Below, in pieces: positions 20,027 to 50,830 of a stretch of 64,000 nucleotides of DNA (positions are counted from its first letter, which is position 1; the number at the start of each line of letters is the position of its first letter). Below the pieces are notes generated by a model. It made no database searches. It saw only the letters and a list, made by a program, of their open reading frames with translations, and was not told where the DNA came from. The stretch spans positions 96,001-160,000 of the forward strand of contig CAVWHO010000017.1 of assembly GCA_963754875.1 (NCBI GenBank). The letters run 5' to 3'. The position numbers and the translations under genes are program-made. The DNA is from Nitrospirota bacterium (lineage in GTDB: Bacteria; Nitrospirota; UBA9217).

Positions 20027-20103
20027 CGCGGGGTGGAGCAGTCCGGTAGCTCGTCGGGCTCATAACCCGAAGGTCGTCGGTTCAAATCCGGCCCCCGCTA
20101 CCA
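20027..20103 (+). tRNA. Initiator tRNA-fMet (CAT)
   Basis: 77 nt; CGCGGGG start with unpaired C1; three G-C pairs in the anticodon stem (TCGGG CTCATAA CCCGA); TTCAAAT T-loop; encoded CCA. Confidence 0.97.
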
Positions 20104-20111
20104 AATCTATC

Positions 20112-20147
20112 AAGGGGTTACAGTTCATACTGTAACCCCTCTTTTTG
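20112..20147 (+). terminator. Terminator after tRNA-fMet
   Basis: AGGGGTTACAGT-TCAT-ACTGTAACCCCT followed by T-rich run. Confidence 0.85.
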
Positions 20148-20283
20148 TTTACAGGACAGGATCAGGACAGTTATAAATCTCTTCGCTCCACGCCCTCTGT
20201 TTTATCTTCTCATAAAGCATTTAATGTCAATGACCAGAAAAACTGCTCACGCTGTCACGGCAATCGATCGGGATAACACGAAA

Positions 20284-20931
20284 TCACTGCCCAATCACCA
20301 ACCTTACTCCCATATCAAATGCTTTTTGGCAATCCAGTGGAAATACTTCTTCATGCTGCTGCTTCTTCTTCACTGGGTCAAAACGGGTTGAAAGAACCTT
20401 GGAATAGTCATCAAACTGCAATGTGTCAAAACTGCATATATATTCAGATTCTCCAAAGATTCTCCGAAGTGCTCCATCATAGCGATTGAAATTGACTTCA
20501 TACTTCCATTCATGCATGACTTCCTCGGTGGTATTCATCGTGTAGATGAATCCGGTCTTAATCTTCCTGGTAAATACTGAATCTGGGGGATTGGTATAAG
20601 TCGTGTACTGAAATAGCAGACGCTCCAGGAATGACTTCATCTCGCCTGAGATATCGCCCCAATAAATAGGGGAACCCATCAAAATGGCATCAGCCTGTTC
20701 AATCCTACTGAAGATAGGGGCAAGGTCATCCTGAACGGCACACTTGCCATAGCTTTTCCCACCGAGGGTCTTACAGGCAAAACAACTTATGCATCCCTTG
20801 TAGTTGAGGTCATACAGATGAATCAGTTCTGTTTTGGCACCCTGTGAAGCAGCACCGTCAAGAGCTTTTTGCAGTAGGGTTGCCGTATTCCATTGCTTCC
20901 TTGGACTTCCATTGAACGCTATTATCTTCAT
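20284..20931 (-). CDS. Flavodoxin-family / iron-sulfur flavoprotein (NADPH-dependent FMN reductase-like)
   Basis: MKIIAFNGSPRK..NT; CISCFAC..C..DD; GSPIYWG. Confidence 0.88.
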   Translation of the reverse strand: MKIIAFNGSPRKQWNTATLLQKALDGAASQGAKTELIHLYDLNYKGCISCFACKTLGGKSYGKCAVQDDLAPIFSRIEQADAILMGSPIYWGDISGEMKSFLERLLFQYTTYTNPPDSVFTRKIKTGFIYTMNTTEEVMHEWKYEVNFNRYDGALRRIFGESEYICSFDTLQFDDYSKVLSTRFDPVKKKQQHEEVFPLDCQKAFDMGVRLVIGQ

Positions 20932-20941
20932 AATATCCTTT

Positions 20942-48574: not shown

Positions 48575-49286
48575 CGATGAACTGACCAAGGCAACGGCGA
48601 AGCATCTGCCTCCCACCGAACTCCTGGAGCGGGTGCTCTCGGTAGAAGCCCATGCCCGTGTCGAACGAAGGATCGAACGGAGGATCAGGGAAGCAAAGCT
48701 CTCGGAACGAAAGCTTCTTGCCGACTTCGACTTCGTCTTCCAGACCGGCGTGGACAAGGCGCAGATCATGGAGCTGGCCAAGCTGGACTTCGTGGGCCGC
48801 AGGCAGGGGCTGGTTATGGCGGGCAACTCGGGAACTGGCAAGAGCCATCTTGCCAAGGCGCTTCTTCTCATCGGTTGCACCAAGCTCTATCGCTGCCGCT
48901 ACACCACCGCGGCCGACATGCTGGTCGACCTTATGTCCGGCCTCGCCGACAACAGCCTTCCGAAGCGGCTCAAAGAGTATACCGTTCCTGATATCCTTTT
49001 TATCGATGAACTGGGGTTCGATCGTCTTGAGCAGTATGATGCCAGGAACGCATCCCTCTTCTTCAAGGTCATCGACGGCCGGTACTGCAAGGGATCCACG
49101 CTCATCACTACGAATATCGATTTTAAAGAACTCGGAGATTACCTGGGCGACCCCGTGGTCACAACTGCTATCGTGGACCGCATGGTGCACCACTCCGTCA
49201 TCATCAATATCAAGGGGCCGAGCTACCGTATGCACGAATCAAAGAAGCTCAACTCAAAAGTAAAGAAACCCTCCGAATCAAAGTAA
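48480..49286 (+). CDS. istB: IS21 helper AAA+ ATPase
   Basis: GNSGTGKSHLA, LFIDELG, ITTN, AIVDRMVHH, G.SYR. Confidence 0.95.
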   Translation: MNKKTTVPDETVTNIKKHLATLKLTGIQKVLDDELTKATAKHLPPTELLERVLSVEAHARVERRIERRIREAKLSERKLLADFDFVFQTGVDKAQIMELAKLDFVGRRQGLVMAGNSGTGKSHLAKALLLIGCTKLYRCRYTTAADMLVDLMSGLADNSLPKRLKEYTVPDILFIDELGFDRLEQYDARNASLFFKVIDGRYCKGSTLITTNIDFKELGDYLGDPVVTTAIVDRMVHHSVIINIKGPSYRMHESKKLNSKVKKPSESK

Positions 49287-49542
49287 AACCCTCAAACGCA
49301 ATCCGTCCGTTCTTCCTCTACATGCACCAACACACAACCCTCTGCGCTCAATCTTTACGCTCTAATGCTCATAAAAAAATCCAACTTCACAAGAAATATC
49401 TCTGACAAAAGGTAGAATCGAAATCTAGACGGGTCTTCAAACCGGCGCGGATCCTATCGGTTAATCAAAATCACGCAACTTCAAGTGGGTCCAGCAAAAC
49501 CGCTGAGGTGGGTCCGTTTCAAGCCGGTGGTAGCAGAGAACA

Positions 49543-50098
49543 GGTGATGCAGTCAATCACCCGGTTTCTTGCAAAGAAGCTACGCTTGACGGTTAACAAA
49601 GAAAAGAGCGCGGTAGACCGTCCTTGGAACCGCAAGTTCCTCGGTTACACCATGACATTGCATCGTAGCCCGAAACTCAAGGTGTCGCCGAAAAGCATCA
49701 AGAGAGCCAAGGCGCGTGTTAAGGAGATCACCCGAAAGGGACGGGGACGCTCACTGCCGAAGGTGATTGCCGAACTTACGAAGTACCTTCGGGGATGGGT
49801 AAATTACTTCCGGCTGTCCCAAGTGAAGATCGCTTTCGAGGAACTGGATCAATGGATACGGCGGAAACTGCGCTGTGTCCTCTGGCGACAATGGAAGAAG
49901 CCGCGAACCAGAGCCAAGAAACTTATCCAGCTAGGGATAGAAAAGGTAAGAGCTTTTGCCTCAGCCTACAATGGCCGGGGTCCATGGTGGAACGCCGGCG
50001 CGTCACATATGAACGCTGCGGTAACCGCCAAAGGGCTACAACAACAGGGACTCATGAGTCTTCTCACAGAGCATCGACGCTTTACAGACCTTGCGTGA
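49543..50098 (+). pseudogene. ltrA: Group II intron RT, 3' part (thumb/maturase X; no endonuclease domain)
   Basis: LRLTVNKEKS, FLGY, LRGWVNYF, LDQWIRRKLR; removing the IS restores ...AAGEQVMQS... Confidence 0.92.
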
Positions 50099-50720
50099 AC
50101 CGCCGTATGCCGAACGGCACGTACGTGTGGTGTGAGAGGCTGGGGCCGGAAGGCCCCCGCCTACTCGATTGAAGTTCCCCGTTATGTGAATCGTTTGCAT
50201 TAAATCCTTTATTAGTGCCTATTCTGCGAGAATTTACTCCACATAATAATGCCGCTGTCTTCGATATCCTCTTCATTGGAACCAATCAAATGAGGAGGTG
50301 CATATGGTCACGTCACAAGAGGAATGGAATTTGAATTGCACTGAATACTGTGCGATTTAAGCAGTCCCGTGAGTGTCTTTCTTCTTTTGAACCCGCTTAC
50401 ACGGTGACAATCTAAAATACCTGATCAAACAAAGAAACAACATTGTATACTGCTTTGATTCGTCGTAAGAGCCTCCGTTATGTGAAGTAAATTGTTAGAA
50501 AACCGCTGAATTTCCTTTGCTCACGACATTTGCTTCACATAACGGGGAACTTCACATAATAGGTGAACTTGAGAAAATCCAGTGTGCTAAAAAATATCAA
50601 AAAAGGCAAAATAGACGTAATTGATACAATCAATACATGATGGATAACACCTCGATTATCAAAGCAAAACGGGAAACCAGGCTTTAATCAAGGGTCTCTA
50701 AAAAATGGCTTGTTGTCGCG

Positions 50721-50830
50721 CATAACCCGAAGGTCGTCTGTTCAAATCCGGCCCCCGTGCCAATCAATACAAAGGGTTACAGCACATGCTGTAACCCTTT
50801 GCTATCCCAGTGGGCCGGTAATGGGCCGGT
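50721..50830 (+). repeat. att-like junction: tRNA-fMet 3' part plus variant terminator plus TGGGCCGGT repeat
   Basis: CATAACCCGAAGGTCGTCTGTTCAAATCCGGCCCCCG; AAAGGGTTACAGC-ACAT-GCTGTAACCCTTT. Confidence 0.85.

Follow-up and report, generated by a model that had tools for sequence, protein, structure and literature searches.

Co-oriented attachment-site ends without an integrase gene form a 66-kb array behind the initiator tRNA gene of a Nitrospirota bacterium

Which processes built the row of gene blocks behind the initiator tRNA gene of a Nitrospirota bacterium, and can these blocks move? The window, that is the whole 64,000-nucleotide stretch that was analysed, corresponds to G000:C17:96001-160000, where G000 is the source genome (4.3 Mb) and C17 its contig; positions given without a contig are those of the window. 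A single tRNA-Met(CAT) gene was identified with ARAGORN at 20027-20103, and its C1:72 mismatch together with three G-C pairs in the anticodon stem marks it as the initiator (tRNA-fMet). Behind it an array of 66 kb was found in which gene blocks are divided by the ends of att sites. A first-pass annotation had described the region as an integron-like stockpile of integrase-less cassettes that share one att design and are moved in trans. The ends of a tandem array were confirmed, with arms and a common orientation. We consider it probable that this row of co-oriented ends arose through accretion by several element families at a core in the anticodon loop, followed by integrase-made trimming to composites that resemble cis-mobilizable elements (CIMEs). 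The target and the ends recognised in the window, which contain sites resembling those of integration host factor (IHF), are as follows.

20027..20103, plus strand: tRNA-fMet(CAT), intact target; the core consists of the anticodon stem halves around the 7-nt loop
20066..20172, plus strand: left end L1, with tRNA 3' half, IHF-like site (20108-20120), terminator (20112-20141) and CAGGAC x2 at 20152 and 20163
24611..24740, plus strand: left end L2, core with changed loop, CAGGAC x3; no recognised right arm upstream
32538..32665, plus strand: left end L3, core with changed loop, CAGGAC x3
38833..38947, plus strand: right end R1, with CAGGAC-type arms in inverted form, an IHF-like site and the core, whose right half is 38940-38947; non-tRNA sequence follows
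50588..50717, plus strand: right arm of family F4
50718..50855, plus strand: left end L4, TGGGCCGG x2 plus a short repeat of the tRNA 3' tip
56540..56649, plus strand: right end R2
57481..57700, plus strand: right end R3, its core (57594-57601) forming the joint to an F2-family end in inverted orientation

As had been noticed before, the 3' half of the tRNA recurs at 24624, 32549 and 50721, and the copies match it at 95% over 108 nt (24624), 85% (32538-32657) and 87% (50718-50797). A fifth left end, L5, lies past the window at C17:173641. The intact gene and the copies at 24611 and 32539 share the downstream block that had been described, a terminator followed by two to three CAGGAC repeats (20152, 24710/24721, 32636/32647). 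The terminator pattern was detected at five places on C17 and at one unrelated place in the 4.3-Mb genome, and its recurrence is therefore not due to chance. At 50721 the hairpin carries paired changes relative to the tRNA-fMet terminator hairpin, in agreement with the compensatory changes reported earlier. The repeat of this copy had been called a different one; TGGGCCGG is indeed present twice at 50811, but CAGGAC, TGGGCCGG, GAGACG and GGGACGG are versions of a single arm whose period is 11 bp, so that the left ends do in effect share one att design. Several variants of the CAGGAC-type arm precede the same short open reading frame (ORF). A common upstream element, TCGGTCCGAAAA, had also been proposed. 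This 12-mer is present at 24611 and 32539, which make up two of its four exact matches in the genome, but it aligns with the left anticodon stem (the core half-site) and a changed anticodon loop, and was thus ruled out as a left arm. The sequence 5' of TCGGTCCGAAAA is unrelated between the two junctions, and with no shared upstream arm the suggestion that they are attP-like was not borne out. In all left ends that have an ORF of 96-98 aa, the 3' tip of the tRNA is repeated as a short stretch (here 50846-50855) behind the arms. The ORF gave no match in Pfam or NCBIfam, and a paralogue adjoins the left end at C17:173641.

Three right ends had gone unnoticed in the first-pass annotation (38833-38947, 56540-56649 and 57481-57601), and a weak partial right end was found at C17:181868-181932 (E 0.07-0.13). 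The right-end profile was built from 19 ends and gave no hits on reversed sequence. Seen from the core outward, the two kinds of end form a single family and are mirror images of each other. Their arms begin about 83-87 nt (left ends) and 74-81 nt (right ends) out from the core. An IHF-like site, called with the IHF consensus, is present at a distance of 35-55 nt in 46 of the 77 left ends and in 23 of the 36 right ends, compared with fewer than one in shuffles; in the mirror geometry as a whole this site lies 36-42 nt and the arms 74-87 nt from the core. For right ends with a good left half-site (n = 14), the match to the tRNA continues 8 nt past the loop (57-100% per position, a match that the anchor search somewhat favours) and then drops to chance; such a sharp edge after the core half-site would not result from drift. 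The 7-nt overlap differs between sites, with 23 different 7-mers in 29 right ends, and an origin of these overlaps from the anticodon loops of other tRNAs was ruled out by eye. An alignment of 65 junction-like left ends (one of them a full, displaced copy of the tRNA), whose anchor favours positions 40-51, gave 57% identity to the tRNA for the first five bases of the loop and 87% for the T-arm and acceptor; the five bases are perfect in 13 of 37 well-kept junctions. From these sequences we infer that recombination may tolerate mismatches in the 7-nt overlap and may take place at core-like sites whose overlap is imperfect. Common orientation was found for 44 of 47 left and 27 of 30 right ends (71 of 77), the majority strand of the contig serving as reference on contigs without the tRNA, which argues for deletions within the array rather than free insertion.

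Along the array the ends follow the order left, left, left, right, left (preceded by the other arm), right, right, left, so that only two stretches, 32538-38947 and 50718-56649, have matching ends. The stretch 38948-50717 has no left end, and no right arm was recognised in units A and B. What had been annotated as a single unit of 18 kb is a composite: it is split by the right end at 38833-38947, in front of which cargo C1 forms a unit whose left and right ends match, and the arm that precedes 50721 stems from another family. This F4 arm is 77-82% like arms in G003 and at locus L115, and the family is also present in G073; a left end cognate to the arm at 50588-50717 was not found in the array here. 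By eye, the F4 repeat resembles arms beside integrase genes at tRNA-fMet in G011 and G022. Arms of families F2 and F3 were also found without the tRNA half. The glmS gene (690 aa; C17:181868-184036 together with the partial right end) may mark the far edge of the zone, since its stop lies about 40 bp from the partial right end and its orthologue also has an end beside it in G001 and G002.

Toxin-antitoxin (TA) loci crowd around the ends. Within 800 bp of an end lie 21 of 35 TA loci, compared with 3.9 under the null and a maximum of 16 in 5000 shifts; the 35 loci comprise 32 that were confirmed by Pfam from a filter for small gene pairs (132 ORFs picked) and three from the scan of the window. 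Four intervals between one right end and the next, each 0.8-0.9 kb long, hold one TA pair each and are co-oriented, the HigBA pair of the window being one of them. A fifth such interval holds a Usp gene, and two more hold no named gene. The TA-holding right-right intervals are the most cassette-like feature of the array, and cassette movement may apply to these intervals of about 1 kb. Beside VapBC, a degraded right arm is kept in G001 and in a public contig, and a different arm is found in G003. TA pairs may persist beside ends because cargo at an end resists deletion. A TA system that stabilises a composite island has reportedly been described in print (PMC8978831).

In line with the first-pass annotation, no integrase was found in the units. 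None of 14 genome matches to PF00589 and none of 10 matches obtained with the integrase of a relative as query fell on C17, a local six-frame search with hidden Markov models revealed no integrase remnant on this contig, and both resolvase matches of the genome lie on other contigs. Any movement of the units requires an integrase from elsewhere, as had been stated. In relatives, an intact integrase of 413 aa is encoded directly behind a non-CAGGAC arm type at tRNA-fMet (G003:C86), and parts of integrase genes stand behind other arm types (G011:C100, G004:C12); loss of an integrase right behind the arms is also seen in relatives. At G003:C86 (L015:1562-2800) the integrase frame, on the opposite strand, crosses the arms and the terminator and ends within the tRNA 3' half.

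The CAGGAC-type arms may be bound by integrases of the PF12167 (Arm-DNA-bind_2) clade, of which eight genes were found in 5 of 64 family genomes. Outside G000, six of the seven genes lie 8-41 kb downstream of a CAGGAC-type left end on the same strand and contig, and the seventh lies within the G002 array. Integrases with PF12167 and PF00589 were located downstream of such an end at 9 kb in G073, 13 kb in G003:C83, 8 kb in G003:C3 (a remnant) and 40-41 kb in G002 (two). In G054, a tRNA-fMet with arms was predicted upstream of the PF12167 gene and then found 15 kb away, with four CAGGAC-type repeats, so that this arrangement is present in four relatives. The integrase has an Xis-like ORF upstream (by eye) and a Cas4-like gene downstream (below the cut-off), and it lies behind defence cargo in three of three cases scanned. 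Between left end and integrase (G073:C1:500000-517000, G003:C83 and C3) this cargo comprises restriction-modification, Pycsar-like and Wadjet-like genes and an AAA and S8 protease pair; the integrase-bearing element at locus L119 carries WYL, patatin and cyclase-like ORFs (by eye). The only PF12167 copy of G000 is located at the end of contig C18; it shares 89% identity with the G003 protein, and a one-base frameshift, which may be an assembly error, splits it. Next to right ends, no integrase was found in 45 loci except an IS91-type gene, nor in further regions inspected, and viral contigs gave no matches for three end patterns and the G073 integrase. A tandem pair of tyrosine-recombinase-like genes of 800-870 aa was also observed (G000:C22:35171-40377, G002:C2:14939, G057:C34:10661). 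In G002 and G057 some 7 kb separate it from a tRNA-fMet junction that follows. This pair, of about 860 aa, was considered as a helper; the arm family that it precedes is a different one.

Among 14 congeners, matches number at least 19-20 in each of G001, G002 and G012, six in G011, four each in G003 and G004, and 0-2 in the other eight, many of which are fragmented. In the stretches fetched, cores with and without the tRNA 3' half number 22 and 16 in G001, 15 and 7 in G002, 16 and 10 in G012, and 6 and 4 in G000; in the first three genomes the cores, 22-38 per genome, are spread across some 260-460 kb. In other genera, well-assembled genomes hold one to three copies, and all named genomes with matches to the junction pattern belong to the Nitrospirota. 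In relatives, elements with an integrase were found that also have this left end and the 96-aa ORF; right ends and transfer genes were not found in these elements. Gene-free micro-units of about 200 bp occur at G002:C2 37009-37212 and G012:C3 597682-597896.

The blocks between the ends are listed below, with the strand where one was assigned, together with remnants of other elements (3' halves of tRNA-Val and tRNA-Thr) and displaced tRNA pieces, which the first-pass annotation had likewise missed.

16186..16242, plus strand: displaced tRNA-fMet piece (nt 20-75) upstream of the tRNA gene; an orthologous piece is present in G001
19750..19803, plus strand: copy of the tRNA-fMet 5' half upstream of the tRNA gene
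20284..24158: cargo A, with FMN reductase, response regulator, DUF1059 and small ORFs
24490..24581, plus strand: att end remnant of a tRNA-Val(CAC)-targeting element, arm and 3' half (24535-24581)
24874..32510: cargo B, with helix-turn-helix protein, PAS histidine kinase, methyl-accepting chemotaxis protein and DUF3617
31740..31850, plus strand: att end remnant of a tRNA-Thr(CGT)-targeting element (3' half at 31809), its arm the same as that of an island end on contig C21
32709..38719: cargo C1, with response regulators, sigma-54 activator and PAS kinase
39318..50560: cargo C2, with immunoglobulin (Ig)-repeat protein, DsrC, PilZ and a group II intron
50872..55542, plus strand: conserved 98-aa ORF, TumE-like pair, frameshifted SNF2 helicase and partner
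55894..56504, plus strand: VapBC TA pair
56730..57329, plus strand: HigBA TA pair, sole content of the R2-R3 interval
57963..64000: cargo D, with LuxR-PAS and a polysaccharide export locus with an IS3-like insert; continues to L5 and the partial right end

Genes of cargo A occur singly and scattered in the zones of relatives (70-88%). The flank with DUF3617 adjoins a left end here, an oppositely oriented right end in G011 and, in G001, a bare core. A block with the SNF2 gene stands beside a left end in G001, G012, G020 and G057 as well; the left end is present and the right side differs in each of the five genomes. As a sign of horizontal transfer of this block, 73-79% identity between genera compared with 66-73% for neighbouring genes is too weak. 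The group II intron with its reverse transcriptase (about 44132-50169) is split by an IS21-like ParB/IstA/IstB block of 4148 bp (45388-49535). Near-identical copies of the intron are found on C18 and C20 and its uninterrupted form in public contigs; a related intron lies directly behind the att terminator, between hairpin and arms, in G012 (599402) and G004. Remnants of tRNA-Val(CAC) att sites stand directly before tRNA-fMet-type ends five times (window 24490-24581; G001:C1 90384, 102281, 300024 and 325963), and each of those in G001 is fused to a right end. On the 5' side of the tRNA, one of the displaced pieces (16186-16345 / 19750-19803) is fused to a degraded copy of an SLT gene end. Similar 5'-half or near-full copies in G001, G011 and G012 indicate that this side is also a hotspot. 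Identical IS3-like copies are located at 12364-13775 and 62950-64000, with a third on C11, and the second interrupts the polysaccharide locus. Repeat proteins are encoded at 4188-6809 (seven 312-bp Big_5 repeats) and 39318-41453 (three 354-bp Ig-like repeats), and a beta-propeller protein with many paralogues in the zones of relatives at 17223-18695.

How such a row could come about was weighed against these observations. Under the reading that we favour, many rounds of site-specific integration at the anticodon-loop core by several element families would have built the array, and one-sided integrase-made deletions and rare inversions at core-like sites would have trimmed it. The remaining CIME-like composites would move only if a passing element supplied the integrase. 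Several results weigh against it. Neither a right end near any of the PF12167 genes nor an element uniting CAGGAC left end, integrase and mirrored right end was found, the right-end pattern occurs in three of 401 genomes of the phylum, all of genus g1, and G001 and G012, which hold most right ends, have no PF12167 match, so that position is what pairs this clade with the ends. No empty site with left-end and right-end flanks directly connected was found, and no joined circular form was present in public contigs of runs X1-X5, although for the circles this lack is no evidence since the runs hold a small share (0.05-0.08) at thin cover. The genomes compared are different species and kin, which means that the counts are not independent, and stacking explains the runs of right end, TA pair and right end as well as deletion does. 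Ordinary dead islands, in which autonomous islands lost their integrase and parts of their ends by unspecific deletion and drift and left no live substrate, would account for the degraded junction copies (T-arm and acceptor 87% identical on average), for the insertion sequences, intron, frameshifts and tRNA-Val and tRNA-Thr remnants in the units, and for the integrase loss seen in relatives; comparable decay has been reported in islands of Prochlorococcus (bioRxiv 10.1101/2020.12.28.424599). Against it stand a contig free of integrase remnants, a tRNA similarity that stops exactly after the core half-site of right ends, loop bases far more changed than the T-arm, and arms, IHF-like sites and hairpin pairing that are kept, and we regard it as unlikely.

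The first-pass view that the array is an integron-like stockpile was examined in a defined form, in which cargo with one right end (for example a TA pair with arms and core) would be excised as a circle and stacked at any core by a relaxed-overlap integrase in trans. The four right-right TA intervals and the varied overlaps agree with it, as do the tRNA-free flanks F2, F6 and F7, which recur joined to differing arms, the integrase-less SNF2 unit of 5.5-6.4 kb, which lies directly at the tRNA in three genera (G012, G020 and G057), and the shuffled gene order of G012 relative to G001 or G002 (Spearman 0.004 and 0.20). Yet movement of cassettes as units was not supported: 5 kb of cargo C1, the cargo of a matched unit, is present in G001 without any end in 18 kb, and homologous TA pairs elsewhere (Phd-ParE, HigBA, Phd-PIN, Gp49-HTH) share promoter and genes, not ends. 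In three of four genomes the ends of shared blocks showed no significant enrichment at att ends (G001 12 of 147, p 0.12; G002 5 of 140, p 0.37; G012 7 of 132, p 0.18) and in G000 the enrichment was weak (5 of 17, p 0.04), in a test that used an incomplete site list. No platform integrase stands beside the tRNA, candidate helper integrases score 20-53 bits with TIGR02249 (cut-off 265), and right ends show no attC-like folding (z -1.9, 0.6 and -0.4, no end-to-end hairpin, judged without the attC covariance model). A stockpile is thus doubtful, and the same caution applies to a tRNA-derived cassette platform, in which a core derived from the tRNA-fMet anticodon stem would serve many interchangeable arm families, and a PF12167 integrase with relaxed overlap, carried in by passing islands, would excise 1-kb units of a TA pair with a mirrored arm as well as larger blocks and stack them at tRNA-free cores, giving an integron-like zone of up to 460 kb (about one tenth of the chromosome) made of double-stranded att sites of the IHF type. 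Scattering in the manner of Tn916 or CTnDOT, where elements with inverted ends insert at secondary sites without overlap identity and give nested ends, would fit the mirror-image ends and variable overlaps, the arrangement in G001 of several left ends in a row and then several right ends, and the one flank used in both orientations, and IntDOT offers a precedent for mismatch tolerance (PMC2817482). Free insertion would, however, be expected to give both orientations and other places, unlike the ends here, of which 71 of 77 are co-oriented and which in G000, where clear, are confined to the tRNA zone of one contig; this explanation is very improbable. The frameshifted SNF2 gene and C18 integrase could point to errors in the consensus, but an origin of the repeats as assembly artefacts is negligible as far as checked: the copies differ by 5-15% and have distinct flanks, the same ends are seen in metagenome contigs and in further genomes, and a public 294-bp contig of run X3, which may not be an independent run, spans 32380-32673 and bridges the 32549 junction with 0 differences.

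The array can be compared with known systems as far as the accessible parts of the cited sources describe them. CIMEs lack integration and transfer genes and keep attL and attR (PMC5704250), and the composites described have two or three members (PMC7563491). In gene content the units here agree with CIMEs, as no tyrosine or serine recombinase matched on C17 and no relaxase or type IV secretion family was found by Pfam among 76 window ORFs and 20 ORFs beyond (ORFs of 70 aa and more). With the CIMEs of Streptococcus ICESt1/ICESt3 they have in common integrase-less tandem units with att ends at a target gene, chimeric joints of unrelated arms and gene-free micro-units of about 200 bp (PMC5704250, PMC7563491), whereas here 10 to 38 cores are present per genome, many units are one-ended, right ends do not reach past the core, the overlaps are variable and a relaxase-bearing parent was not seen within the parts scanned. 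In Dehalococcoides, many tandem islands at ssrA likewise share about 100 kb behind a single tDNA, and 15 of them are reported to lack an integration module and proposed to be cis-mobilizable; they have another target and short direct repeats, while the present array has arm-bearing ends of 110 bp, several arm families, TA crowding and zones of up to 460 kb (PMC3146451). The tRNA-anchored islands and tycheposons of Prochlorococcus share newcomers that push old elements inward, scattered partial tRNAs and integrase-bearers that are rare and transient, but their hallmark replication and packaging genes were not seen here, and the arm anatomy and tRNA-free right ends are undescribed in the accessible text of that source (bioRxiv 10.1101/2020.12.28.424599). 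With integrons and integrase-free attC clusters (CALINs) the array shares co-oriented sites, short intervals, TA pairs between them, shuffled cargo and no nearby integrase; it differs in its double-stranded arm-type ends with IHF-like sites instead of attC hairpins, in cargo that has its own promoters and was not found travelling with the site, and in having no IntI or attI at the locus (PMC4889954). IntDOT, an arm-binding integrase able to tolerate overlap mismatches, and Tn916-type systems share 7-nt overlaps that differ from site to site (PMC2817482), but here such tolerance is suggested by sequence, the candidate integrase is of the PF12167 clade and the ends are strongly co-oriented. Islander lists four tandems of three or more among 3919 islands and requires an integrase for each member (PMC4383910); as tRNA fragments are present and integrases absent here, arrays like this one are invisible to such surveys. 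No account of this Nitrospirota array was found in the accessible literature (main texts without supplements). Its novelty lies in degree and anatomy: cores by the tens, arms in mirror image, right ends that lack tRNA sequence and have variable overlaps, crowding of TA pairs and a named candidate integrase. It shows that a variable zone of 66 to 460 kb can be seeded by one tRNA site. With arms in mirror image, a common core, a sharp edge behind it and a variable overlap, this anatomy makes accretion and deletion by site-specific recombination, which have long been assumed, testable with one named integrase clade. If the relaxed overlap is true, the integrase would be useful as a tool, and if the TA intervals are true cassettes, the array would be an analogue of integrons that works by a different chemistry.

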